A DNA stretch of 56,282 nt, counting the filler, from Asterionella formosa (taxonomy: Eukaryota): the NCBI GenBank assembly GCA_002256025.1. It is 5 parts of 5 records of this genome, joined end to end, with 100 filler letters (N's around TTAATTAATTAA, not from the genome) between each part and the next. Parts side by side here need not be neighbours in the genome. Positions count along the whole stretch, not along the records: positions 11,286 to 22,470 come from NKIB01008753.1; 4 more parts are not named here. The stretch is one strand, 5' to 3'. Position 1 is the stretch's first letter. Each line of letters starts with the position of its first letter. Below are positions 2,071-50,306 of this stretch, piece by piece. The notes below the pieces were generated by a model. It searched no databases. It had not been told where the DNA came from and saw only the letters and a program-made list of their open reading frames with translations. Made by a program: the position numbers and the translations under genes.

Positions 2071-3913
2071 GCACAGCACTCTACGCTGTAACATGAGTTG
2101 ATGAGCAATTCATTAGAGTTGGTTTGAGATTAATGATTGATGAAGACTATTGCTGCAGCAGATCTGTGCTAATTTGAGACACATGGGCCGGGAATAATCA
2201 CCTGTTGACCATAATTGTGTCCCAAGAATTGAATGAAGGGGAGTAGCAGCAGAGGAATATGTCAGCATACCTGTAATAAATTCATTCAATGGCGGATATC
2301 AACAGTACCAAGCAGGTGGTAGTATGTTGGAAGATGGATACATGTGTAATGTCCAATACACATGATTTATGACAGACAGCATACTGCTACCAGCAGTACT
2401 ATGCTGACCCAATAAGGAATGCAATAAATTTATAGAGCACACATTAGTAGAAGTAAACAATTGGTAACTGTATTTCTCTGTGTCCGGCAGCATGTGCTTT
2501 TGTCGTGAGTTGTTTAGCGCTTGTTTATATTTGCTTACCAATCATGAACCAAGATTATGTACTGCTCCCGGCATACCTGGTGTACTCTAGTATTCTGGTA
2601 CTGATTTCATATATGCCTTTGGGCGTGGAGCGATATCAAAACCACAAACAGCAACGTAGATTCAATATAAACGTATAAACACAAACCATGAGCATACATG
2701 TTGGCATATTCCTGATGTATATTTGTGTTTTGGCATGGCGCAAAATCATGTCTGCACTCAGCAACGTAGTAGATATATAGTATAAACGTTTAAATATCAT
2801 TTTTGTATGTTTAAACAGGAACTCTATTAATCTGGCGCCGAGGATTCCTATTTAATTCAAATATTGAAATGGACACTCAAACATGGGAATTCATAGAAGC
2901 AAACTCCTTGTTCCCTGCACCGTCTGCAACAACCCTAGTGACGTTTTCTCCAAACAAGGGCTAAGACAGGGCCGCAACCTTAAACTTCCTTTTTGTCACA
3001 GAGGACCCAAAATGTGTATTTCCATGTACATAACTGCTATTCTGGCTGTCATGCTAAACTCTGAAATTTCATGGTCAAACGCAAATTCGATGTGCCCCAT
3101 ATTACCCTTAAATTAAAATGCTTCAAAATTTAAAAATAAATTCTAATGTGTGATATTGCATAAACCGTTGTCCTCAAAACCCCAATATTTGTGTTTGTGT
3201 TGACCAAATTTGATAGCTCTGGTTCAGTGTAATATAAAAAAATATGTTTATTCAGATACGACTACATTTAATTTCCCAGAATGTTTCAAGACTTGCTTGC
3301 TCATTTGCATACCAAAACGGGAGCCAAGAGAATTTCAAAGGAGATCAAAAGAGCAAGATTTGATTAAAGGTAATGATAAATGGGTTCTTTCCAGCTCGAG
3401 AGGCTGATATCAGTCTCCCTTTGCGGCCCGATAAGAAAGCAAAACATACCATTGAAAACTACCAAGTAGCACTACTATCCAACATACATAATCATCAATG
3501 TATAATATTGTACATAAGTGGGTGCAGGTCCATAACCAGACCACAATACCAATTTTACTTAATCCATTTCTTCTTGATTCTCATATGGTTATATTGCATA
3601 ATCACTTAGTAGTACTACCATAATAGCAGTGATATCTGTCATGTTTTAAATTCTGTGACAGAGCAAAATAATTTGCCAACAAAAAAAACAATGATGCATC
3701 ATACCTCCAGAAACCTTCAGTTCTGTAGATTTAGATTAACTTTTCAGAAATGAAATATCCGTTGAATTGATCTACCGGACTAAAATAATTTGAGTCGTAA
3801 CATATGTAAGGGTTCGGATTACGATATAAAGCTTTTGCAGTACCGGCACTACCTTGACAAAGGGTGAGGAGAGTTTATGATTCTCGTCCCAAGCAAGTTA
3901 CAAGTCAACGACA

Positions 3914-6782: not shown

Positions 6783-7672
6783 NNNNNNNNNNNNNNNNNN
6801 NNNNNNNNNNNNNNNNNNNNNNNNNNNNNNNNNNNNNNNNNNNNNNNNNNNNNNNNNNNNNNNNNNNNNNNNNNNNNNNNNNNNNNNNNNNNNNNNNNNN
6901 NNNNNNNNNNNNNNNNNNNNNNNNNNNNNNNNNNNNNNNNNNNNNNNNNNNNNNNNNNNNNNNNNNNNNNNNNNNNNNNNNNNNNNNNNNNNNNNNNNNN
7001 NNNNNNNNNNNNNNNNNNNNNNNNNNNNNNNNNNNNNNNNNNNNNNNNNNNNNNNNNNNNNNNNNNNNNNNNNNNNNNNNNNNNNNNNNNNNNNNNNNNN
7101 NNNNNNNNNNNNNNNNNNNNNNNNNNNNNNNNNNNNNNNNNNNNNNNNNNNNNNNNNNNNNNNNNNNNNNNNNNNNNNNNNNNNNNNNNNNNNNNNNNNN
7201 NNNNNNNNNNNNNNNNNNNNNNNNNNNNNNNNNNNNNNNNNNNNNNNNNNNNNNNNNNNNNNNNNNNNNNNNNNNNNNNNNNNNNNNNNNNNNNNNNNNN
7301 NNNNNNNNNNNNNNNNNNNNNNNNNNNNNNNNNNNNNNNNNNNNNNNNNNNNNNNNNNNNNNNNNNNNNNNNNNNNNNNNNNNNNNNNNNNNNNNNNNNN
7401 NNNNNNNNNNNNNNNNNNNNNNNNNNNNNNNNNNNNNNNNNNNNNNNNNNNNNNNNNNNNNNNNNNNNNNNNNNNNNNNNNNNNNNNNNNNNNNNNNNNN
7501 NNNNNNNNNNNNNNNNNNNNNNNNNNNNNNNNNNNNNNNNNNNNNNNNNNNNNNNNNNNNNNNNNNNNNNNNNNNNNNNNNNNNNNNNNNNNNNNNNNNN
7601 NNNNNNNNNNNNNNNNNNNNNNNNNNNNNNNNNNNNNNNNNNNNNNNNNNNNNNNNNNNNNNNNNNNNNNNN
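6783..7672. other. Scaffold gap (run of N)
   Basis: Continuous N run. The poly-X ORFs in the track are artefacts of it. Confidence 0.99.
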
Positions 7673-11185: not shown

Positions 11186-11285
11186 NNNNNNNNNNNNNNN
11201 NNNNNNNNNNNNNNNNNNNNNNNNNNNNNTTAATTAATTAANNNNNNNNNNNNNNNNNNNNNNNNNNNNNNNNNNNNNNNNNNNN
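11186..11285. other. Artificial contig linker N44-TTAATTAATTAA-N44
   Basis: 100-nt spacer with a core that stops all six frames. Repeated at 22471, 33743 and 45014. Confidence 0.97.
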
Positions 11286-11920
11286 TACCGGTATGTATGT
11301 ATGCCCACCATCGTCATCACGACAGCGGTGACGAAATACTACCGGTACTACGTACAGACAGGAACAATCGAAAATTCATCCTCAGCCATCATGTACCAGG
11401 TACCAGGTACCATGTACCACCGTACCGATAGTTATATTCTAGGTCGTATTAGATAGTTTCATGCGGCTAAACTAAACTAACGGGTACCTGGGGTAGACTC
11501 CTCCCGGTATGCCCAAAGCGAGATTAGCGAGTATGATAGCAGGTCAAAGGTACCAGGGTACCCTGATGACGGATAGAGCCCCCATCAAAGACGAGAGAAA
11601 TGCTTGGAGTACTATATACCTAGTAAACTAATGCCGGTAGTTCGACCATTCTCACTTCATCCAGCTTACTTATCAATGGGAGAAATAACTGAAGACGGTT
11701 AGTTTGCTGATATACCTTATTTTCCAGAAAATAGCTAGAAAAACTATAGACTATATACTGGCTATTATTGGTATAGGTAGTTGTCGACCATTTCGAAATG
11801 AATGCTGTGGATGACAAAAGCATGAGCCACAGCGTGAGAAAGAGCCCACCTTCAAGGTAAACTTGTATATGATTCCACCCCCTTACAACTAACTTATCAA
11901 CATTGGGTCTATACCTATTC

Positions 11921-13836: not shown

Positions 13837-15291
13837 TAGGCTGATTGCAGTCTAATAGACTGGATTCTGTCAGGGTTTTCAATCCCTTGATGCCCCTAGC
13901 TCAATTCAATGGATATTTCATTTCTGAATAGTTAATCTAAATCTACAGAACTGGAGGTTACTGGAGGTATGCATGGCAATGAGCTTATAGGTTTAAAAAA
14001 ATTTCAGGCACATGAGAAGTCTTCCTGCCAAAAAATCTAAAAAATATCTGTGCAGAATGGCATGACAACGAAAATCGACAATGGGCAAAGGTGCCATCGT
14101 TTCATGCCTTTCCAAGTACATTCACCCATCAATGTGGGTCAGAGATCATAATTTGAAAATCGCAAAAGGTCATTGAATATGATGAAGTTGATTATGAACT
14201 TGAGGAGGTATCAGAAGGTGAAGTGATGCCGCCTTCAGGCAGAGCTGCTCAAACTTGTCAAGGAGTGTACTGGCACAGTTCAAGACTCTGATGATGCTGC
14301 CATTCTAGCTGGATTTTTTGATATTGGTGTTGAAATTTTCCCAGAATCTTAAAAGTTCTCTGTCACAATGAAGTTGCAGACAATTTAATTGATAATGATT
14401 GGGGGAAGTCAGAAATTCACGACAGGAGACAGTTGAATGCATCAAAGTTCAATCCAATAGCTATTTTCATCATTTCTAATTCAGTTGAAGTCCACAACCT
14501 TCCATATTTTGATTTATTCTTTCCTTCGGAGTTCTGGAAAGTTTCCATATTTTAATCATTGATCAAAAGGTAAAGGCAGTGCAAACCTGTAACCATTCAA
14601 ATGGATTAAAAAAATGGGGCAAGTAGCATGGTGGAGGGAAAGCAAAGCGTGCACAGATCATGAATAACAACAAGAAATTACATGTACGGTGGTTTTCTAC
14701 AGCGATTGCAAATTTCAACATGCTCTTGAAAGTTCATCAGGATGAATGAATGCAAGGTTGGAAGAATATATTCCAAGAAATTGATGCTGGTCCTCAGCGT
14801 CGTCGCACTGTTCGAAAATTGCAAGCATCCAACAACCAGCCACATCCGTTTAATGACAAATCGCTATTTGATTCATCAATGAACAGAGTTTGTGTAAGAA
14901 TTGACATGATTGATGAGGAGGAGTATTGTAAAGAGGAATTGCCATCAACATTTTACAGAATTTTGTGCCTTATGTGGTTCATCCTACTCTCTTCGAATTT
15001 CGACAGTCCGTTTTCCTTAAGTAAATGGCAGTCAGTCCGCCCATTGAGGGGCTATAGATATCAGAAATTCATTTTCCTTAAATAAACAGCAGTCAATTCT
15101 GACATGGAAATCAAGAGGCTATTGAAAATATTTAGGGTAGTTTGGCAATCCAAAAACGGAGCATATGAAATATACACAATATGTTTTGTATGAAAAGCAA
15201 TTGCAGAATTGAGTAATTCGAAAACTGAACATATGAAATATCCAAGATATGTTTCATATGAATGGCGATTGGCTAGTTCGCATCCAGCCTA
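13837..15291. mobile_element. Possible degenerate DNA transposon with imperfect terminal inverted repeats
   Basis: Left end TAGGCTGATTGC; right end reverse complement TAGGCTGGATGC. The interior is stop-riddled coding-like DNA. Subterminal 15140-15275 matches 21901-22030 in reverse orientation. Confidence 0.35.
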
Positions 15292-15991
15292 CAAATTATC
15301 TAAACTAGGTTTTCAATGTTAAGTGAAAGGGCAATTTAGTGGCGAAAAGTGCGACAATAGCTATGGCATGAATTGCCCAGCAGTTAAGACTCTACTGGGG
15401 AGCAGTCTGCCTACTCGCCATCTTGTGTACATGACTTTTTTTCTGAATTATCTGAAAATATAAACTACAAAGTTGATGGTCAGAATCAGATTGCTTCTGT
15501 TTATATACTTGTTCTTAATAGGAATGAGTGCTAATAGGTACACATTTTAAGTCATGGAGTTCATTTTTCAATGAAGTCTTAAATTACTATACTGGTAGTT
15601 TCATTAATATCATCATGATCATTTTGTGAGTGCTGAATTCAATTGATGCAGATGAAGATACCACACATGGGTGCTTGCTGCTGTTGCAGTTGGAGATTGG
15701 AATGGATTTGGACTCTGCTTGATCGCCGCATTTATAGCATATTTGAAGCTATTATCAAGTTCATCAAATACCGGCATAAAATTTTGTCATGCATTCAGAT
15801 GAAGATGTTAACAGATCGCTATCCACAGCAGACAAGATCTTAACAAACAATTTTCCCTTCCCTAAATTTTATTATTATAAACCGTTCTCTACCTTAACGC
15901 AATGCAACGACGACGTAAAGACATCATTATTGACGTTAATTAAAACCGACTGCTCTGAGTTTGCCTATCCGCAATCAATCCCTCGAATTCA

Positions 15992-21150: not shown

Positions 21151-21484
21151 TTGCGGATGATAACTAATTAACAATGTACACAATGCAACAATACACGTAC
21201 GGAAGTATTTACTCGCTATATAAATCTGAACAACTCGTTTGTGACAATAAATAGTGGCTGTATCTTGCAAACTAAAAACTCAAACAATGCATTTACTCTG
21301 TTTGGTGGTGGCTTTCAGTTCAAAGGTCGTTGTAACTGTGGCTTACAGTTTTTGAGTGGTACTCCCTCCATTCATGTATGTATAGTTGCACCCAAACTTT
21401 GCGGCTTGGCTGATCATGAAGCACAAGCCCCAATAATTCTCCGGCTAACAGCCCCTAGCATTAAAAAATTATTCCGAACCAAAT

Positions 21485-21543
21485 GGTGTGAATCGAACCT
21501 GTCACCTCGGTAGGTGAGCTACTAACCAACTAAGCTATTCCCC
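21485..21543 (-). repeat. tRNA-derived Pol III head (SINE-like / pseudo-tRNA)
   Basis: Minus strand GGGGAATAGCTTAGTTGGTTAG...CAGGTTCGATTC has an A box and a B box. The 3' acceptor strand does not pair, so it is not a functional tRNA. Similar element at 54495-54565. Confidence 0.6.
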
Positions 21544-21640
21544 ATTTGGTGTATATAATATATGTTCTAAGTAGTCTAGAATTAGGTGAACCTGGGTTGA
21601 AAAATATGGCGCCACTCAAGCGCGCTCCAGCACTGCTGAA

Positions 21641-21824
21641 GGCAATACACGCCCGAGGTGGTCTCTTGCCTGCGAGTATACATGTGTTCGAGGCTGGGTG
21701 GCGCGAGTAGGTTGACCGTACGAGTGGCGCCCCCGGTGCTGCGAGAAGGTCACCCTACGAGTGTCATCCCAGTCGAGTGAACATGTATACGAGAAGGCAA
21801 GTAGCCGCCGAGAAGGGTATTGTT
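21641..21824 (+). ncRNA. Putative structured RNA (or ssDNA) rod hairpin with five tandem G·A loops
   Basis: End-to-end pairing with perfect stems CTTGCCT/AGGCAAG, GTATACATGT/ACATGTATAC and TGACC/GGTCA, many G·U pairs, and five CGAG/CGAG oppositions. Confidence 0.6.
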
Positions 21825-22470
21825 GAGGCGATTCCCGCTCTAGCTATCGTCACGTCATTCGCTTACCTACTGCCCACAAATTTAGCATAAATGTCAATTT
21901 TAGCCTACTATTGCCCATCATATAAAATATATTTTGGATATTTCCTATCTTCACCTCGAAAATTGCCAAAGGTCCGATATTGCCCATCATTAAAATATAT
22001 TTTCTATATTTCATATGTTCGCATTTTGGCAAGACAACAGACGCCAGTTGCCCCTCGGTTTTCCAGCCCTGGGATTGCCGAAATCGGCAAGGGGTCTACT
22101 TAAGGAAACCATTTTTTATGCTATACAGATTTTTATAATTTATGTCTAGAATTCACCTCGTTTTTGTTCGTCTCCTGAAAAGTGGACTCCGGCAATTCAC
22201 CTTTCACCATGCCAATCGTCGTCCATCATGACCGGTTTGAAGCGAAATCAGTTCCGCGATGACGCCAGTAGCGATTCTTTGCCTGAAGGATGCGGTTGAT
22301 TGTTGGATTGCTTGTCTTCTCGAGGTATTCATGTAGTCGCATTGTCCATATTTCGTCGGACGAACGATGATATCGATACATCTGATGTTGGTGGCAAGTT
22401 TTTGCTCCGGTCATGTATGTAATGATGCTTAACGGATATTCTACTGGTACCGGCAGTCATCTAGTCTACA

Positions 22471-22570
22471 NNNNNNNNNNNNNNNNNNNNNNNNNNNNNN
22501 NNNNNNNNNNNNNNTTAATTAATTAANNNNNNNNNNNNNNNNNNNNNNNNNNNNNNNNNNNNNNNNNNNN
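22471..22570. other. Artificial contig linker
   Basis: N44-TTAATTAATTAA-N44. Confidence 0.97.
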
Positions 22571-22599
22571 ACTACTACTTACATACCGGTATATCTAGA

Positions 22600-23270
22600 A
22601 TGGATCTTTGGATGGAAGGAATTCGGTCATGGTACAATGAACAAGACTATTTAGCTGCAATGGAATGTTGGGATGATTGGATTCGAGAGGAATATGATTG
22701 GCACGATCAAGAGCATGTCGATGACAATGACAATAACAATGACAATGACAATCCACTCTTTCAACTGTCGGGAAGTAACAACCATGCTGTGGAATTGTTA
22801 GTGTTCATGGCAGGGTGTCATTTGGACTCTACGAATGCAAGCATGGCTCAAAGATACATACATCGAGCTATACACGCTTGTACAACAATAGAAGAAGCGA
22901 TTCCTGCCATTCAAGAATATATTTCAATGACTGCAACACTTTCGAATCACCAAAAGGCTCGTAATGTAATTCAATGGGCAATGACTGCTGGTAGTAGTAC
23001 TACTACTACTACTTCACAAGAACAACAAGAACCAGAGTATCCTTCCTCATCCTATTGGAATGATCCATATCAACGACCAGGATATATACATCCACAAATA
23101 AAGGCCATGCCATGGTATGAACGACAAGATCATCCAACATGGTGTAGTACTATTTTGGAACAACATTATTCCATCATTTTACAAGAATACTTGAAACTAC
23201 CAATCCATTATTTTCATAATGTCGGATCTGGGATGCATCGATCCAGTGGTGAAAATGATGCTTCTATTGT

Positions 23271-23306
<36 letters not shown>

Positions 23307-24009
23307 AGCTGCTGCTGGTGGTGGCGAATGGAATGAGGTAGTATTGTTTGGGACTGGAGCAACACCACATGTAGCACCTCAAACATGTGCACTCCTACAA
23401 ACGCATCTACCAGATGCTGTACAATTGGCAGAATGTGGGGGAGGGGAAATCATTTTTAGTGTCTTGCGACCCAAAACAAAATTACAATCTCATTGTGGGA
23501 CAACCAATCTACGTCTTACTGCACATTTAGGTCTTGTTGTCCCTCCAGAAGAAAATAATAATAAAAATGAAAATGAGTTTGGTACATGCAAAATTCGTGT
23601 CAAGGATACATGGCATACATGGAAAGAGGGAGAATGTATAGTCTTTGATGATTCCTTTGAACATGAAGTAATTAATGATACAACATCAAGTCGAGCAGTA
23701 TTGTTGGTAAGATTCTGGCACCCAGACGTCAAAGACAGAACCAAGGCAATGGCTGCAGCATTACAAGCCAAAGAAGATGATATACTAAGACGATACAATC
23801 CACCATTACCACCTAATTATGAGAAACGAACGTCTGTTCAACAACGGGGATTGGAACGAACCTCATGTCCACGATGCTTTCAAACTGGATATAGAAACAT
23901 TCGAGTGATGGATAACACTATTATTACCAATCGCAGTTTTACTCATGACAACAATGATGTCAATTGCAATGTCGCATTTCACTGTAGCTGTGGTGAGCCC
24001 ATTGATTGA
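22600..24009 (+). CDS. Aspartyl/asparaginyl beta-hydroxylase family 2OG dioxygenase
   Basis: FSVLRPKTKLQSHCGTTNLRLTAHLGLVVP, WKEGECIVFDDSFEHEV, RAVLLVRFWHPD. Degenerate TPR-like N-terminus. C-terminal CPRC...CSCG. Confidence 0.85.
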
Positions 24010-30630: not shown

Positions 30631-31876
30631 TGTTTGTCATTCGTGTGTGATGAGAACAAGCTACCGACCGATAAAGTATTTCGATGTACCGGTTGCTACA
30701 TTTATGATGGCACGAAACAATAAAAACATAAAATGCATTCAGCCAACCACAAAAAACCCTCAACGGATTATCAGCCACAACTATGAACTACGGTACATCC
30801 TCCCTTGGTGGTGGTGATGCTGTCGTGATATAGTACTGGTAATCATTTTTACCTTGGAGGATCACTGATACGTGGACTATGTTATATACCGGTATGTACT
30901 TACCGGTCACCCCACCCTCTCCTAAATGCAAACCGGGTGTGTTTAAATTGGGACATGTGGCCCCACCTTGCAGTTTTCTATGATACTACCGGGATACGTA
31001 CGTATTATCTAGGACAACAATCAATGCAGCCATAATAGATAGGCGTGCGTCAGCACATTTGCTGAACAGGCAAAAGACAGACGACCCCGAGGTGGTATCT
31101 TTTTGCCAGTTGCTAGAAAGAGACTGTACCAGTACCCACCCGCAAGCAGAACCGTATAATATTTGAGTCCTCCGAGTCATTCTCAACGAGGGTTTCTGCT
31201 TGGAACACAAATACCGGTACCGGTACCTTGTGCGGTACCTGGTACCGTACCGGTACCGGTTTTGCCGCACCCGATAGACAGTCACACTTCGTCATAAGCA
31301 ACTTGGATACAACTTATTACCAAATTCTACGAGTAGTATGATATTTTACGTTCTTGTAAGAGGAGTACCTGGTGGTAACTCCTTAATAACGGTAAGCTAT
31401 ACCGTAGTGTGCATTTCTGCCACCCCACCACAGCATTAACGCAGCAGTTAAAAAATGATGGCTGAAACGGGACCAGAAAGGACCAAAATGGGATCAGGAA
31501 AATATTCGTGTATATAATTTGTCCATAGCACATGTTCACACTGCGATCGTTTAAAGTAATGTGTTTTTCGTTCCTTGATGTTTGCCGCTCATTATTTTGA
31601 ATTTAGCAGTCAGCGCCCTTCGCGTAATTTGTTGTTGTCCAGAGAAAAAAGAGAACACTCTGTGTTCGTTACTTTGATTCATTAAATCATTTTCATCAGA
31701 TCTGGTGAAGAATCTCTCTCCATCAGAAGTCACAAAAACTACTACTAAACAAACGTGTCGATGCTTGCAATTCGACAGCCAGAGTAGTAGGCGCCATTAC
31801 AGCAACACATTCAACAAAACGAGACAAGCAGGCGATACCGTCTTTCAAGGAATAAAGCAATTGGATCATCTTTATC

Positions 31877-33742: not shown

Positions 33743-33842
33743 NNNNNNNNNNNNNNNNNNNNNNNNNNNNNNNNNNNNNNNNNNNNTTAATTAATTAANN
33801 NNNNNNNNNNNNNNNNNNNNNNNNNNNNNNNNNNNNNNNNNN
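33743..33842. other. Artificial contig linker
   Basis: N44-TTAATTAATTAA-N44. Confidence 0.97.
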
Positions 33843-36328: not shown

Positions 36329-37378
36329 CTACTTCTTTTTTTCATGCTTTGCCTTCTTCTTCTTGTCCTTTTGAGCCAACTCCTTTTCCCAAACATCTCT
36401 CACTCGCTTAAATAACTCCATCGTTGAGGTGGCATCAATTGTTGAATCGTGCGCTTCTCCCTGCACTTGAATAGCAATACCCAAATTTTCTTTCACTAAA
36501 TCTCGAAGTTTTCGTGGTCTCCACTTGGTTCCTCCCAACCGCTGAAAGGGTCGGTAGTGAGCGGTATCTCGGATATCCTCTTTGGGATGTTGCAACAAGA
36601 GCGCTTGCAAATCATTTTTCAACGCATGTCCTACCAACACTTTACCCTTTAATAGTTTTGCCACAGTCGCACGGCAGGTAGATACATCCATGGCTTTTTT
36701 GGTCGAAATGTCCTTGGCTGTCACTCCACTAACATGAGTCCTAAAGTCCGTAACACGAGCCGGAACTTGAACAAAGGTATCCAACAAGACATTGCCATCC
36801 CAATCCACCAACGACACACGTGCTAAAGCCGATTGTTTTCCATCAGAACCAATTCCCACCATTTCACAATCAAGTGCCACGTACTTGGCCTTGTACTCTG
36901 CTGGAATCGTTGAGTTAGCCTCAAGTCTAGCTTGTTCTAGTTGTTGTTGAGCAGCCGCTTCCTTTTGTTGATTCAAAATATCATTAATGCGAGGAAAAGT
37001 CTTTTTTGGTTTCTTAAGAGGAGGATGAGTTGTTTGTTTTGCAGTTTCTTCGTCGCCTTGTTTCACAAAGACTAATTGCTGGTCAGTTCCCTCTTGTTTG
37101 GCCGTTCGTCGAGCTTCCTTTCGAAGTTTCTTAGCGTCCTTGACAGGCAAATCAATTGGAATGACAATGGTTTTTGTTGTGGTCAGCTGCTGCTGCTGCT
37201 GCTGCAGTTCTTCGTTGGCACTGATTCGTTTGCGTTTTTTGAACATGTAACTTGGATCCAAATGTTCCGGAATTGGTACGCCTTGTTCCTTCAAGGCGGC
37301 AATCTTTTTCTTACGACGGTCTCGCATTTGCGTCTTTTGTTTTTTGGAAAGGATACTTCCGCTGCTATTAGTCGTCAT
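36329..37378 (-). CDS. REX4: RNA exonuclease 4 (DEDDh)
   Basis: YVALDCEMVG, LARVSLVD, DFRTHVSG, LVGHALKNDL, IRDTA, HDSTIDA. Lys-rich nucleolar-type N-terminus. Likely start is MTTNSS at 37378. Confidence 0.9.
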   Translation of the reverse strand: MTTNSSGSILSKKQKTQMRDRRKKKIAALKEQGVPIPEHLDPSYMFKKRKRISANEELQQQQQQLTTTKTIVIPIDLPVKDAKKLRKEARRTAKQEGTDQQLVFVKQGDEETAKQTTHPPLKKPKKTFPRINDILNQQKEAAAQQQLEQARLEANSTIPAEYKAKYVALDCEMVGIGSDGKQSALARVSLVDWDGNVLLDTFVQVPARVTDFRTHVSGVTAKDISTKKAMDVSTCRATVAKLLKGKVLVGHALKNDLQALLLQHPKEDIRDTAHYRPFQRLGGTKWRPRKLRDLVKENLGIAIQVQGEAHDSTIDATSTMELFKRVRDVWEKELAQKDKKKKAKHEKKK

Positions 37379-38285
37379 GATGGGAAGGAGAAATTGTTCT
37401 CTCTCTCTATATATATAAATGTACGTGTATGTTGTGCGGTCAGGAGATTGTTGTACCGGTAGTGATTTAGTCAATAGAAAGTGGAGTGTTTGTCAGAGAA
37501 GAGTTTTGTTACTATTGACAATGATAATATGAACATGATATCCCGGAATATTTGCACCAGTACTCTGGAGTACTGTAAATCGGTAGTAAGTATGTGCTCG
37601 AAATTACTTACCTGTACCGGTAGGCTACTTGATCATCCCTATCGAGGGGACATTCATGAGAGTCATGTATTATATATAATAGATAGAGAACCCTGGTAGT
37701 CTAGCGGTATGTAAATTTTAATTTTAAATGTGGTTACATCAGACGACATTAACACACCTGGAAATACGTTTGCGAGGACGAACGAACCAAGAGCGAGCAG
37801 CAAAAGAGAGCCAACAAAGCAAACAAGGCAGAAAGAAAAGCAGAACAGAAATTGGGTGGCGGTTGGCTGTGAAGAAATCGTCCTTCCCATGTAGGATCGC
37901 TGGCCAGACGAGATTGATAAATTGGAAAACCGGGATCATAGCTGTTTCCTCATGTATGTAAATAAGAACCGTCTTTTCCCGCAACTTCCACAGTTTTTTA
38001 TGTATACCTAAGATAGAATGCTGTACCAGGTACCCTGTACCAGGAGATACCAAGACATGTACCATAGTCGTAGCATATGTAAATAATGGCCGTAATTACC
38101 CGGTAGTAATATTCTTGAATTCAAATCAGGCAAACCGCCGTTTGCAACTGTTCCATGGACTCCTCTTGAAAACTACCGGCACGACTTCATGCATCATCAC
38201 ACTTGCTCTTGACTTGTTGTCTACAATTCTTTGTAAACCATTTTATCATTTTCATCAGAACGAGCATCGCTCAATCATCATCATC

Positions 38286-40088: not shown

Positions 40089-43000
40089 CTAGACTATTAA
40101 ATTACTCTTTTCTTGTGTCAACGAGAGCATCAATATATCAACAAACGAACCACCCATAGTCATGAGAACACTAATAGGGGAATTGTCCACTGTTGTTGGC
40201 TTCTTTCGAGACGCTCCCTTGTCACGATCGCCCAGTAAAAGAGTATCTAACATTCTGACAATTTTGGGGTTCTCAGAGGCTAGCCCGAGTGCCTGGAATA
40301 CTTCGTTCGCTTTAGACCAGCATTCCTTGGCAGCACCTTCTTCGCCATGAATCATATGGATTTTTCCAATCGTGATCAATGCATTGACAAATTCGCCATC
40401 TATTTTCCCCTGACGCCGTATACGGACAAACTCTTCCAAGAACAAACGAGCTCGGTCCAAGTCGCCACATCGAAATTCCATGCCACCCATGTATTGTAAA
40501 ACATCAGCAACACGTTCGTCGCCCTCTCTGCCGGCCATGCTAAGAATTGCGAGAGCTTCCTGATATGATCTTGTCGCTTTGTCAATGTTGTTCATGTCAT
40601 TTTGGACATTTCCAATAGCAATGAGAGCATCTGCAACTTTGTCGTGGTCATCGCCAAGTTTATTTCGTCGTAGTCGGAGACAATTTTCGTAACATTCGAC
40701 TGCTAGCTCGTATTGGCGCTTTTCACGTTGGACGTTACCAATATTCTTGAGCGTTTCAGAAATCTTTACATCATTATTGTTAGCCTTCCGTATTCGAAGC
40801 GCTTTCGAGAGAAGCTCGAGTGCATGGTCGAGTTTGCCCCTCTTGGCTTCGATGGAACCCATCATATTTAGTGTATCTCCAACTTCCATGGCATTGTTGC
40901 CAAGGCGAGCTTTACGGATGGCAAGCGATTCTTCGAGGTGTTTTAAGGCACGTAAAGATTCACCTTGATTATGAAGTGTGTATCCTATGCTGTACAAGTT
41001 AGCTGCGACGGCTTCGTGGTCACCGAGCAGCTTTCGGCGGATATTCAAGGCGGTGACATAATTTTCCATAGCTTCGCCGTACTCCCCAAGGTCGTCCATA
41101 AGGTCGCCCATTTCAACCAGAACATCGGCAACAGCTTCATTCTCGTCTCCGAAAATCGAACGTCGAATGCGCAACGCTTCTTCAAAGGAAATTTCTGCTT
41201 TCTTGCTCCACCCCATGGCTTTAGCTAGGAGACCTATCTTCGCGTGGGTGAGCGCAACCTTTTCGCTGTCAGGCAACCGCACCTGAAGAATTTTCAAAGC
41301 TTGTTCTAGACACTTAAATGCCTTTTCTGGATGTTTGTTGGACTGGTGCAAGAAAGCGATATTGAATAATGTGCTTACAACATCAACGTGTACGAAACCC
41401 ACTCCAGCTCGTCGGGCCTTCAAACTGGCGACAAAAATCTTCATGGCCTTTTTGTATTCTCCCATGGTCAAGTATACACAGCCAATTACGTGAAGCAATG
41501 TAGCAATCTTTTCCTTTCTGTGTGGCACTTTCCTGGTCAAGATCTCGAGTGACCTTTCGTAGTAACGTAACCCCTCCTCTTTTTGCCCCGTCAAGGTGTT
41601 GAGCACCCCTTTAATTGCTAATACATCGGAATCTCCCTCTGCTCCCAGATCAGGATCTAGTTTCTTGAGTCGTATAACCTCTTCGAAATACGAAATGGCA
41701 TCGTCGGCACGATCTTGATCTGTCAGACAGTTTCCAATGTGATGGTATGTGGCAGCGAGTTCGGGGTGTTCGTCACCGAGTTCGACCTTCTTCGAATTCA
41801 ACGCAACTTGGAAAATTTTGAGTGCTTCTGTCACCTCTCCTATATTGTAGTGAATATTTCCAATACTATCGAGTATTTCCCCGATATCGACACAATTGAG
41901 GGTGACATCAAGTTGCATGATATCCAAGGCCCATTTGTAACTATTCATTGCTTCTGTGAAGTCACTCATCGCAAGAAAGACATCACCAATTTTTTGTACT
42001 GTATGCGCGAATAGGATGTGCTCCACGCCGTGCAGTATTCCTCGAGCATGAAGGCATTGTTGCAGCGACGCGAGGGATTGCTCAAACTGATTCATTTCAC
42101 AATACACAACCCCAACATTGAACAAAATTGCGGCGACAAATTCGGTCATGCCAAGCGACGAGAGAAGCAATTCTTGACTACTCTCCCAGTGAGTAATTGC
42201 TGCCTTCCAGCATTGTCTTTCGGAAAGGGAAAATCCAATTTCGTACTGGGCTCTCCCAGCGTCGACGCAGAATACGACCGGGTCCTTGGTGTTGCTTCCA
42301 GATGTAGGTGTGATTAAGTGATTACCAAGTGTTGCGTATGCCCGAATAAGTATATTGCGTGGGTCAGTATCCATCATTGCTCGCTCTATCAAAGTGATAA
42401 TGTTACTGTGCAGACTCTCACAATCTTTGATATGACGTCGAGTGGCTTTCTCTCTGCCAAATGCAAAAATTCGACATCGCACAAAGCGCTCGTCTGCCAG
42501 CAATTCAGCGGCTTCCCTGAACATTTCGGCTCGAAGCATGTGTGATATGATAAGTTCCAGCCCATAATCACGGGCAGCGTCAGGACGCGTCGTGTCCCAA
42601 TCTTGATACTGCAACATGTAAGCCTCAACGAAAGCTCTATTCCATTTACACTCTGAATTACTAGTGAGCACCTTCATGTCATTTGCTTCAGATGATAGAT
42701 ACTCTCCATATTCGTGTTGGATGCTGTGCATGATCTGGAGAAAAATTTCTTCATCGTTGCTTTCTAGGGACCTTTTAGAGGGCAAATCATCGTCGGCATC
42801 GTAAGTGGTAACCGCTTTCAAAACGCCAACGGCTACAAAAGCTTCTGGAATCAGAATAACAGCGTCCTTTCGTCGGGAGTAAAAGGGACTTCCTACTGGG
42901 AATAAAGATTCTCCTTCCATTTCCAATAGCGCCTCAAAAAGGAGAACCGCTATCGACCGTGGAACCATAGATGGGGCCCATGAGTATTTTTGATGCTGGA

Positions 43001-45013
43001 ACGAATATTTGTCGTAGCAGAACACCTGGACAAATGCAGCAAAACATAACTTTAGGATGTTGGTTGACTTGCCGTTGACAGAGGGAGAAAAACTCATTTC
43101 CATTATTTCATACATTTTGTCAGTCCCTTGATCTGGTACATTCAATATTGGTCTCATTGGTCTTGCGACAGATTCGTGAATTTCTTCCACGCTGCTAATA
43201 ACTCCCGCGGCTGCGTGCTTTAACGACAACCAGCGCCCAACACTTTTGACTGCCAGTGGATGGTTGGCGCATTCGCGAACAACTTCCTGAGCTTCCCTCG
43301 AAGATGCGATCACATGATTTGGGGGTTGTCCAGATTCTGTCACCATCAGCTTGATGGCATCTACTTCTTCCAGCAAATCGATTTCTACCGTATCTGCGAA
43401 TGGTAAAAGATCGCGAATTTTGGTTGTCAGCAATATACAAGGTGAATGGGTGTCCAACTTTTTTTTTGATGTTTGAGTTGACTGATATATTTGTGGCATA
43501 AATTGAAACCATTGCAAGTCACTTTCAAAGTATACATCATCTAGAATAATGAGCACATTTCTTGTCTCCATGATATTGGCAATTGTGTCACGGGCATGTA
43601 GCATGAACCCTGCTTCGCGTCTCTTCCGCTTCGACGAAGGTTCCCCAGGGATATTCACAAGGTCAGCAAAGATAGGCATGCCGCTGTATCCTACTTGGGC
43701 AACTATGTCACGCAAACAGTGAGTATAGCGTAAATAGTCCAACTTGTCCATACCTACATGAGCGAACGCAACACCGTCCTTGAAATAACTTCGAACATCA
43801 TCATGCAAAGCCACCATTGCTGCCATTGTTGTTTTTCCCACACCAGTCATACCCATAGCAAGAGGATCATTCAAGTCTTCAGAAACTGATGAAATTGCCA
43901 CCATCACTCCTTTGCTCCCCATGGCGCCTCGTGGACTAAACGCACTTGATTGACTGTACGACGAATGGCCCAACACCCCTACATCGGTCAATGCGTGCGG
44001 AGGCAGAATTCGGCGTAAAATAGATGCCATTGTCAGAGACCGCGGTAAAGGTTCACCATTAATTTTGTCCAAGACCTGCAAAGCCCACTGAGGTTTTGGT
44101 GCAAACTGACGGTAATGTACATCGACGTCGTCATCTTTCACTGAGTTCGCAACATCGCAGACCAAACAAAGTTCCTGAATATTGGGACACCACTGATCTG
44201 TTAATTTCAAAACTTCGTAGCAAACCTGCCGAAAGAGCAACGTATCATTCTTCATAAAAAGCGTTTTCAATGCTTCGACATGGCCAGTTGCAGTCCATGC
44301 TCGCCGCAAACTTCCGGACAATTCATATTTTGGAACAGATTGGCCTTCGAAAAGACAAATAATTTCTTGAGCAGTTCTTTCCAGCATCTCCAGAAGAGTC
44401 ACGTAAGCCGTCTCAGCTCGATCATTCCATTCCTGCCGTTGCCAGACACGGTACGTGAGGTCGCATAATAAGCCGACGAGTTTTTGAGCTCGTCCCAATA
44501 AGTGGTCCATCTCGTCGATGGGATCTTCTTCTAGGTACCTTTGGATAATTGGTCTCAGGGAAACGAAAACGTGGTCGGCAGTCGGCGCATGGCTTAAAAC
44601 TGCATTTAAAGCTTCAGAAGCAACCGCCGTGGATTGCCCATCGTCAGTTCCACCCAACGTAGAAAGTAATTCTAGCTCATCAGATAGTTGCAACAGGGCA
44701 CCGAGCAGCGCTTCAAATCCATATAATAGCTGATGAGATGCATGAGCATTTGAATGGGTGCTTTCGACGGCATCCAGGATTTCTGTGGATTGGCCGACAA
44801 TTTCACCCATGGCGACAAGTTCGCGGACTGTTTTCCGATTGAGGCCTGACTTGGTGATGGTCAGCGTTTTATCCACTTTGGCTCCTAGCTCATGCAGTAT
44901 ATCATATTCTTGACCCTTGCGTTTAAGCCGAGTACCTATGTTGATTGGCGCTATCGTAAACAAATCTTCTTCAGCAGTATTGTGGTCGTAAATGCGCTTC
45001 GTTAACTGTGAAC
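40089..45013 (-). CDS. STAND NTPase (NB-ARC) with long TPR array, NLR-like; 5' end truncated by contig end
   Basis: Walker A GMTGVGKTT, Walker B LIILDDV, sensor ILLTTK, GLPL-like NHPLAV, MHD-like IMHSIQHEY, then roughly 15 42-aa TPR repeats. The frame stays open up to the linker. Confidence 0.88.
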
Positions 45014-45113
45014 NNNNNNNNNNNNNNNNNNNNNNNNNNNNNNNNNNNNNNNNNNNNTTAATTAATTAANNNNNNNNNNNNNNNNNNNNNNNNNNNNNNN
45101 NNNNNNNNNNNNN
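45014..45113. other. Artificial contig linker
   Basis: N44-TTAATTAATTAA-N44. Confidence 0.97.
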
Positions 45114-48306: not shown

Positions 48307-50306
48307 ATACATAATTTCAATACATATACCGTACTCCTCGCTCAGCATTAGTCTAATGTAGACAAACAATAAACTAACTTTGAATGATGCCGGCAGATTT
48401 ATAATATACAATCATCACATCAAATAAGTTTTCTTTCCTAATCCATGTGTGTGTAGCGCAGTCCTTCAGGTCCCTGACGGCTGACCTTCTCTTGACAGAA
48501 ATGGTCGCAAGGTGGCTTCTTGGTGGCTAAGAAGTCGTGCAAGCAAGGATTGCGACAAGGATAAGACTTCTTTGCCAACTGTCATTCCCAAGTTCTCACA
48601 CTGTGTCCCCAAGGACTAGAATATTTTGGGCGTTAGCGAACATAGTTACATCTTGACTGCAGCTCATGATTGTCATGATACTTGTTTTATCCGAGTCGAC
48701 AAAGAAGTCAAGTCGGCACCATGTGACAGTAATGGAAATTCAGTTTGCATCGGTTTGCGATATTACTGCCATGTCGTCGTCGTCGTCGTCAGCTGCTAGA
48801 TTCATTGGAACTGCAAGTGACGGAGGCAAGAGAGCGATTCAAGCTCTTCTCAAAGAAATAGCTAGATGTCATTATTATAGACTGGGACGAACTGAATGCC
48901 TTCGCTCCATCTGCTGCTTCTTCCGGATTCTTCGAAATTGTCAAGCTTTCTTTGCAAAAGTAGAGGGCGAAGCCAGTTCAAGAACACAGCTGACAAGGAT
49001 GTTAGAACTGCATTGATGAAAGCTGGCATCATGGGACTTACAAAAGTTGCAGCAGGAAGCCAAACTGTTCAAATAAAAGAAGCAACGCATGAATAAGTAC
49101 TACGCCAATACATTCTCCAAGACCGGCTTCAATGCGTAGATTAATGCTGCTGCCGCTTATGGACATAAATGCCATAGTGGAGTACTCGATTGATGGAGGA
49201 CCTGTCATCCACAAGCACTGATCATTTTGATGCAGCTAGTTTATGATTCTGAAAAGCAGGCAAATAATGAAGTTAACATGTCAATGCTATTATGAGCAAT
49301 TATTATGCTATCCCCCTAGCTTAAACCAAATTAGGAAAACAGAAGGCAGGCAGAGCTTATCCAATTCTAGAATACTATTATACAAATGCATAGTCATAGT
49401 AGTTTTTGATGGGTAGCTAGCACTAGATATGCGTAGTACTAGCTGCGTAAGAATAAGGAATTTACAGAAAGCAAAGGCGATGCTAATATTTTAAAAACTA
49501 CATTAGCCAACTTTCCCACCTTTGATGCTCCTCCCCTTTGTCTCAACTGCTTTGCCTTCTTGTTCTTTTCTTGCCGCATTTTACCAAAGTGGTAGAAGCG
49601 GTTGTTATTCAATGGCTTGCTATTGCTGCCCTTTCCTTCATCATCATGTGAAATGTGAAGTATACCCAACATATCAATTATAGCGGTAAGATATCATTTT
49701 AGGATACAGATGTAACTACACTATCGGTACTGGTCGTGCTATTCCTATTTGCTAAAAATTTGGGCGCGAGATTTGACTATTTAAGGATTTGGTAGATGCG
49801 GTGGGAAAAATATGAGTAATTCGACTCTTTTGATAAAAAATGCTCGACCAACTGTGACGTGTTTTGATACTTTCAACTGCAAATTGGCTTTGGTATTTGG
49901 TCGATTCGGTGGCGAAGCTCTAAGGTATTTCTGATTGAATTCCTGTGTCTGCCCTTGCTGGTGGTACCTGGTACCTGGTACCCTGGTACTCGGAGCAACT
50001 GGTAACCATGGATTCTTCTAGAGGGGGAGAACTCGCTCGTCGTCGTGTCATCTGTTCAAGGTGGCTCATTACTATACCTGTACCTGGTACCACCACCAGG
50101 TACTAAGAAGGACGACAAGTTAGGTAACTGGTAGAACTGTGGTATACCTAGCACCAGGTACCAACATGTACAAGGTACCAGGTACCAGGGTACCACATTG
50201 TACAGGAGCTGCCTGGCATGTAGTCCCTTCTACATAGCTATTTCCTATGTAGTCCGTTGTTACGACAAGCAATCACCATTTACCCAACAACTTTCCAAAC
50301 AAGCAA

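Follow-up and report, generated by a model that had tools for sequence, protein, structure and literature searches.

The window analysed here, a stretch of 56,282 nucleotides from the Asterionella formosa assembly GCA_002256025.1, consists of five separate contigs (11185, 11185, 11172, 11171 and 11169 nt) joined end to end by N44-TTAATTAATTAA-N44 spacers at 11186-11285, 22471-22570, 33743-33842 and 45014-45113. An additional run of 890 Ns lies at 6783-7672. Pfam searches of these contigs recovered ordinary eukaryotic nuclear genes (V-ATPase H, photolyase, ClpP, RRM and NB-ARC/TPR), and ARAGORN found no tRNA. The second contig (11286-22470) hosts a long hairpin, and the repeat to which the hairpin belongs is still running at the contig end, 836 nt past the hairpin start. 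Because the window is made of joined contigs, the ORF at 22600 is not a neighbour of the hairpin.

Other features of the window deserve brief mention. A 1,624-aa ORF at 40089-44963 (-) combines an NB-ARC domain with many TPR repeats, a STAND-type architecture, and TAC/GTA trinucleotide runs at 22991-23306 lie inside ORF 22600-24009, which encodes an Asp/Asn beta-hydroxylase domain. The palindromic 8-mer TACCGGTA occurs at 17 sites against 0.26 expected, a count reached by 0 of 100 shuffles (examples at 22584, 26355, 26550, 26629, 26721, 30887, 31212, 31218, 31248, 34515, 37454 and 37615). These sites fall mostly between ORFs or just upstream of ORF starts, for instance 16 nt before the ATG at 22600, with one located 20 nt inside the start of ORF 36329-37474 (-); two window contigs start at or close to such a site. 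The 8-mer is possibly a promoter motif, or else marks where a small repeat ends. Microsatellite-like runs of the GGTACC(T) type are found at 49959-50195, 31212-31257, 11388-11427 and 38023-38048, and also in the left flank of one of the metagenomic repeat copies described below (L003).

The hairpin is a complete rod-like module of 198 nt on the + strand (21634-21831), delimited by its folds, its CGAG positions and the left limit of the repeat. Its 5' arm (21634-21731) and 3' arm (21735-21831) meet at a CCC apex (approximately 21732-21734). In the minimum-energy fold, CGAG motifs stand opposite one another in five internal loops, at 21654/21809, 21673/21790, 21689/21774, 21704/21758 and 21721/21742. 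The initial annotation had listed ten CGAG motifs, paired motif to motif as C-G, G·A, A·G, G-C around a C-rich apex; all ten were recovered (21654 to 21809) and the pairing was reproduced. The same annotation gave the hairpin an extent of about 185 nt. The structure stands but is longer, and its first base (21634) is paired. Next to the terminus, TGAA faces TGAG in a sixth tandem G·A at the base of the hairpin; in the fold this basal loop reads T[GAA]G / T[GA]G.

The concentration of the motif is local. Ten CGAG lie within the 200 nt of the hairpin, compared with 149 in the whole window (about 0.5 per 200 nt) and 5 in the next-richest 200-nt stretch; CTCG reaches at most 4 in any stretch of this length. 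From one motif start to the next there are 15-21 nt on the 5' arm side, and along the 3' arm the successive distances are 16, 16, 16 and 19 nt, so the step from loop to loop would correspond to about 1.5 helical turns. The helices between the loops are all of different sequence, yet complementary arm to arm, and the longest unbroken one is about 12 bp. The remaining irregularities of the fold are three 1x1 mismatches (G/A, T/T and T/C), four single bulges and two larger internal loops (GCC/AAG and GTA/AA). Within a span limit of 400 nt, this is the longest natural-sequence inverted repeat reported for the window.

Folded as RNA, the + strand of 21641-21824 reaches -100.3 kcal/mol (z -8.5), and 0 of 200 dinucleotide shuffles did as well, in the control that the initial annotation had proposed. 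The - strand reaches -67.5 kcal/mol (z -3.9). For L001, a near-consensus copy of the hairpin, the values are -112.3 kcal/mol (z -11.6) on the + strand and -84.0 kcal/mol (z -6.1) on the - strand. With RNA parameters the + strand is more stable by 28-33 kcal/mol; with DNA parameters the energies are -50.1 (+) and -44.1 (-) kcal/mol, a gap of just 6 kcal/mol. The earlier statement that only the + strand folds well is correct as to the direction of the preference but too strong, given that the - strand also beats its shuffles. Similarly, the claim that many deviations from Watson-Crick pairing are G·U holds for the energy-optimised fold, with 9-12 G·U pairs, but not for a fixed arm-to-arm alignment, in which the ratios of G·U to A·C in three copies (5:2, 9:3 and 6:4) are not significant. 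Since this asymmetry is not significant, the strand preference rests mainly on the G·A loops; the fixed alignment has 11-12 G·A or A·G oppositions versus one T·C.

No known family accounts for the structure. Rfam 15 gave no match over the whole window at gathering thresholds, and over 21200-22300 at E up to 10 it gave three weak matches, none of them within the hairpin, in agreement with the initial expectation. The full-text literature, taken apart from most subscription journals and from Dfam/Repbase, yielded no account of such a hairpin.

The hairpin is far from unique. A search of public sequencing runs with 21560-21900 listed 24 runs, 20 of which, from 18 studies, hold part of the hairpin stretch; six are RNA libraries. 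Their sources are marine, freshwater, river, runoff, estuary and sediment samples and one 'algae metagenome'. We matched the contigs of four runs to 21400-22100 at 80% likeness and obtained 30,893 contigs from X1 and 868 from X2 (both DNA), 3 from X15 (RNA) and 24 from X18 (poly(A) RNA). Summed depth in X1 stands at 1.1-3.6 million over 21640-22095 versus about 8,000 at 21496-21543; it does not count copies but does indicate a highly multi-copy, polymorphic family. Depth stays as high or higher rightwards to 22100. Loose contig ends accumulate just before 21634 (75 in X1, 32 in X2, 2 in X15 and 4 in X18). In addition, a metagenome scan with a hairpin 22-mer returned three contigs of about 1 kb, L001, L002 and L003, which are 94.8%, 95.2% and 90.6% identical to the window over 715-796 nt. 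The further copies that the initial annotation recommended looking for are thus present both at these three loci and in the public runs.

The window, L001 and L003 begin their shared sequence with identical first bases, TGCTGAAGG, at 21634, and pairwise likeness among their 40-nt left flanks is no better than among shuffles. Many copies, a common boundary and unrelated flanks are the generic marks of an interspersed repeat, and the hairpin almost certainly belongs to a multi-copy repeat. Of the origins first suggested, this fits the mobile-element option, with the hairpin as the left-end module of a highly multi-copy interspersed repeat, while a single-locus non-coding RNA gene is excluded by copy number. 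In the majority of copies the letters at 21737 (C), 21764 (C), 21779-80 (AC), 21830 (A) and 21852 (G) are not those of the window. The copy in the window is slightly decayed, because the majority letters at 21737, 21764 and 21779-80 pair better. Depth dips over 21712-21783 and deletions centred on the apex occur, for example from 21679 to 21781, in contigs of three runs; together these suggest that many copies carry shorter hairpins.

Presence in the RNA runs X15 and X18 was read from contigs, which give neither strand nor ends. The X15 contigs show two different left flanks. One high-depth poly(A) RNA contig of 3,476 nt in X18 carries a diverged 5' arm only (21634-21726, 14 differences) followed by unrelated sequence; it could stem from a different species, in which a transcript includes a fragment of the repeat, or from assembly having joined two sequences at the palindrome apex.

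To the left, a fragment of another, far rarer repeat lies outside the hairpin at 21547-21594 (+), with loose ends at 21547 and 21594 and a depth about 30-fold lower. Next to it, 21485-21546 (-) has, by eye, the look of a tRNA reduced to its 5' two-thirds, including a D-arm-like part and a T-loop-like one (GGTTCGATTC); no tRNA was called there by ARAGORN or by Rfam (E up to 10). This stretch is missing from other copies of the low-copy repeat, as X1 contigs join 21454 to 21550/21551 with other letters between. The left flank of L001 (756-1185) derives from a small repeat family that is also present at 1349-1603 and 3018-3143 of the window, at 75-80% identity; the likely source of L001 is thus a related organism in which small repeats abound.

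To the right, the repeat unit continues as an AT-richer sequence (21832-22470, +), traced by depth and by alignment with L001, L002 and L003. Over the 639 nt that follow the hairpin, folding does not surpass that of shuffles (z +0.47, 20 shuffles), and Rfam contains no ribozyme match, so that the integrated viroid-like rod of the initial annotation is not supported. The hairpin is always joined to this same non-coding sequence, over at least 860 nt. The longest open frame in the repeat is 83 aa. A coding region on the - strand of the right part was considered and rejected, as the frame is just 68 aa stop to stop in both the window and L002. In L002 the repeat extends at least 224 nt past the end of the window contig, and this tail holds no obvious right terminus. 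No coding partner was found in the window contig or in the three metagenome loci of about 1 kb. A direct duplication, 89% identical by self-BLAST and kept in other copies, occupies 21909-21952 and 21978-22020 (+), and both of its units contain an A/T-rich TATA-like stretch.

A diverged, colinear relative of the repeat (approximately 68-72% identical) lies on the same contig at 14812-15440 (-). Its likeness to the hairpin is confined to the basal 3' arm, where CGAGTAGG is followed by CCAGTAGAG as two tandem units; it is without the 5' arm and forms no long hairpin (fold z -1.5). The corresponding subfamily is common in X1, where a loose-end consensus at 21948 (37 contigs) matches this relative. 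Contigs clipped at 21840 and 21948 show that subfamilies of less than 80% identity exist. Because this subfamily is present and abundant without the 5' arm, the hairpin is not indispensable for spread.

Comparison of copies indicates that the hairpin appears to be under constraint. Between the most divergent pair, L001 and L003, it differs at 4 of 198 positions (2.0%) versus 56 of 514 (10.9%) for the rest (p 3e-5). It is likewise less diverged between the window and L003 (p 0.002) and between L002 and L003 (p 0.02), though it is CpG-rich. In the other three of the six pairs, those among the window, L001 and L002, it is not significantly better conserved (p 0.17-0.24), and between the window and L002 it is slightly worse conserved than the rest. 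The low divergence seen with L003 could reflect a recombinant copy instead of selection. At paired columns, six pairs vary on one side while keeping wobble or Watson-Crick pairing and three lose pairing in some copy. None of 74 pairs shows compensatory base changes among the four copies, because these copies, at 90-95% identity, are too alike for covariation. Taken together, we consider it probable that the hairpin is selected in its single-stranded + form.

Two variants suggest that the arms may meet in vivo. In L002 the fourth loop has been rewritten on its 3' arm into the exact complement of the 5' arm, by three substitutions within five bases, the outcome expected from templated correction in a quasi-palindrome. 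In L001 the first 29 nt after the hairpin reappear, inverted, immediately to the left of the terminus (matched by 0 of 300 and 0 of 2000 shuffles), and the rod is extended to about 270 nt and -159.7 kcal/mol. Such an extension would be expected if a strand ending at the terminus had snapped back and been extended. A loose-end consensus near the junction in X1 bears a weak resemblance to this extension, with an agreement of only 0.37. The apex-centred deletions in three runs can be read as a further sign of the same kind.

Several other explanations of the boundary and of the motif pairs were considered and set aside. The longer palindrome is a property of L001 only, as the window and L003 were matched by 1961 of 2000 shuffles. 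A tandem or circular arrangement, in which the left flanks would be the right end of another copy, received no significant support, and the reverse-complemented left flanks are unlike the right part beyond the 29 nt of L001, contrary to a long foldback with diverged arms. The CGAG pairs might also be 4-bp target-site duplications of nested palindromes. Direct repeats around inverted ones would then arise without selection. Such an origin would need five unrelated palindromes with a central CGAG, and the deletions seen do not run from CGAG to CGAG; that from 21679 to 21781 lies within a TATACATGT palindrome.

How does this hairpin relate to known systems? It resembles the end hairpins of elements mobilised as single strands (the Helitron 3' hairpin, IS200/IS605 ends and LINE/SINE 3' stem-loops) in its strand specificity and in its place right at the end of an element of high copy number. 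They have a single stem and measure about 10-40 nt, whereas the present hairpin spans 198-270 nt with five or six identical internal loops. Helitrons have 5' TC and 3' CTRR ends, a hairpin of 16-20 nt about 10 nt from the 3' end, and insert into AT. Here the terminus is TGCTG (+) or ...CAGCA (-) and the 198-nt hairpin is flush with the end, so a Helitron was rejected. Replitrons were also rejected: HUH transposons are described as using end hairpins, and Replitrons are reported to be absent from diatoms and to have quite different ends, with only an 11-bp palindrome (10.1101/2022.12.15.520654).

Two retroviral RNA elements also invite comparison, the Mason-Pfizer monkey virus constitutive transport element and, for its purine-rich internal loops, the Rev response element of HIV. 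Extended stem-loops of this type have repeated, symmetry-related, purine-rich internal loops that recruit several protein copies; the present hairpin has no sequence or Rfam similarity to them and consists of five or six minimal 2x2 tandem G·A sites, and the retroelement nature of its carrier is a guess. Foldback elements and MITEs, short units bounded by terminal inverted repeats and a target-site duplication, share with it arms that pair over their whole length and high copy number, and the 198-nt unit reads TG...CA. Left flanks end in AT in all three copies and in two loose-end consensus sequences, and the right side begins with AT. However, this right side is a conserved part of the repeat and not host DNA, the repeat goes on for at least 860 nt on one side only in every copy seen, and the direct-repeat orientation of the CGAG sites sets the arms apart from simple inverted repeats.

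Other likenesses concern the motif itself. Kink-turns and SECIS elements have tandem sheared-type G·A/A·G pairs beside a C-G pair, as here. A kink-turn was rejected, as all five loops are symmetric 2x2 C[GA]G / C[GA]G without the 3-nt bulge that in a kink-turn adjoins the G·A pairs on their 5' side in one strand, and no SECIS or snoRNA family was found at the Rfam threshold, one SNORD25 match (E = 10) lying outside the hairpin. The terminal hairpin of adeno-associated virus likewise repeats a short G/A/C tetranucleotide, the GAGC bound by Rep, in a replicon that makes use of a single strand. Those repeats are contiguous and Watson-Crick paired, whereas the CGAG sites are mismatched and follow one another at 15-21 nt, and the analysis revealed no Rep-like gene. 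A viroid-like or retrozyme-like rod was rejected on the unstructured right part and on Rfam, as was an HDV-like or other 5' processing ribozyme, for which there is no Rfam match and the topology is a plain rod. By analogy, the hairpin may work most like the end hairpins of single-strand elements and the extended stem-loops of retroviruses, while being a member of none of these groups.

The carrier repeat is most likely a mobile element or a non-autonomous derivative of one, and our leading guess for its class is an LTR or other retroelement. LTRs are recognised by TG...CA ends, a second identical LTR, a PBS and PPT, and a 4-6-bp target-site duplication. A 5' TG is present in all three copies that have a left end; there is no second repeat copy in the window and, by eye, no convincing PBS in the L002 tail. 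In two runs the left-flank consensus is purine- and A-rich. This flank, the TG start, at least 1 kb without coding sequence and the TATA-like duplication are compatible with an LTR. If the repeat is one, the hairpin would be located at the start of U3, and hence in the 3' region of the element RNA.

We therefore favour, at somewhat below even confidence, a reading in which the hairpin is the left-terminal module of a mobile-element repeat and serves in cis as a single-stranded platform of G·A sites for protein. It would act from a + strand in single-stranded form, RNA being likelier than DNA since the two strands differ by 28 kcal/mol under RNA parameters versus 6 under DNA parameters. The tandem G·A is stable in a CGAG context. 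The structure may be a stiff rod of 11-15-bp helices, each different, broken about every 16 nt by a twofold-symmetric CGAG/CGAG site, and five to six equivalent sites could offer a multivalent platform to a protein supplied in trans by the element or by an autonomous partner. Its role might be in packaging, export, priming or end recognition, and the G·A loops would also hold perfect duplex to about 12 bp or less. That the hairpin binds protein in this way is put forward tentatively.

Alternatively, the ten CGAG may form an array in duplex DNA, as same-orientation subterminal sites for a transposase or other DNA-binding protein, with the palindrome secondary. Subterminal repeats bound by transposase are known from hAT and CACTA transposons. 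Within 200 bp of the element end, the motif recurs in direct orientation about every 16 nt. Longer words are shared as well: the 3' arm has three occurrences of CGAGAAGG and one of GAAGGCAA, a word that is also found at the terminus. Furthermore, because the hairpin-less relative at 14812-15440 still has two such units, the CGAG motif may predate the palindrome. Counter to this, a duplex array leaves unexplained both the arm-to-arm complementarity between motifs, with its differing helices, and the 29-nt palindromic extension of L001. The rewritten loop of L002 points to pairing between arms, and what the ten sites all have in common is just a 4-mer, a short target for a DNA-binding protein. 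We regard this alternative as unlikely.

Similarly improbable is that the hairpin is a functionless by-product of one fold-back (snap-back) duplication in a master copy, carried along by amplification. Such an event would account for the relative without a 5' arm, and L001 illustrates that inverted element sequence can be added at the left end. Apex-centred deletions and templated correction of a loop are typical of palindrome instability, and the copies have no compensatory changes. Against this, a fold-back places CTCG opposite CGAG, the reason for which the initial annotation was right to reject a decayed palindrome. To obtain CGAG on both arms, five sites would each have to undergo two transversions while the rest of the hairpin underwent none. 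The lower divergence of the hairpin in all three comparisons with L003 also argues against a passive origin.

If the repeat is transcribed, the hairpin RNA might instead feed a small-RNA pathway (siRNA- or miRNA-like), in silencing or through co-option by the host, with the loops setting or limiting dicing. A long, stable fold-back in a high-copy repeat, with flush and paired ends and present in metatranscriptome contigs of six RNA runs, is what such a pathway might use. However, the helices between loops do not exceed 12 bp, a length that suits Dicer poorly, and contigs from RNA runs carry neither strand nor ends; we consider this explanation quite improbable. Least credible, and very improbable, is a stand-alone structured non-coding RNA gene or an integrated viroid-like or hairpin-ended viral genome, for which an extreme fold matching no known family might speak, as opposed to the tens of thousands of contigs that cover the hairpin in one run, the constant non-coding and unstructured right side of at least 860 nt, the lack of ribozymes by Rfam, the lack of a flipped CTCG/CTCG form among the 40 of 69 variant rows listed, and empty exact-pattern scans of viral contigs.

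Those scans covered viral contigs and prokaryotic genome contigs, in which an exact hairpin 26-mer and 22-mer and a right-part 26-mer found 0 loci. The pattern CGAG-N12-CGAG-N12-CGAG-N12-CGAG found at least 120 loci in viral contigs, of which 121 match-strand entries were ranked by fold energy; the four checked (L064, L113, L083 and L066) are simple tandem repeats with no hairpin of opposed CGAG.

Returning to the single-stranded platform, its most specific form is an undescribed cis-signal of a mobile element: a ruler-like single-stranded rod, most likely RNA, with helices of unconstrained sequence and about 1.5 turns in length between identical G·A sites, each of them occupied by a dimer of a protein that the element encodes. 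Coated with five or six such dimers, the rod would mark the transcript for packaging, export or priming and would escape double-strand RNA surveillance, in an element that is abundant in fresh- and salt-water algae. As a whole this scenario is possible but doubtful.

If the rod proves not to be functional, it serves as a warning that a spectacular 'structured RNA' at a single locus can be one copy of a repeat that breaks assemblies at that very place. If it is functional, nature would offer here a clean case in which proteins bind again and again to a symmetric non-Watson-Crick motif that recurs periodically. Attention would also be drawn to a mobile-element family that is abundant in aquatic algae and as yet unclassified, represented in the metagenomes and metatranscriptomes of 18 studies.
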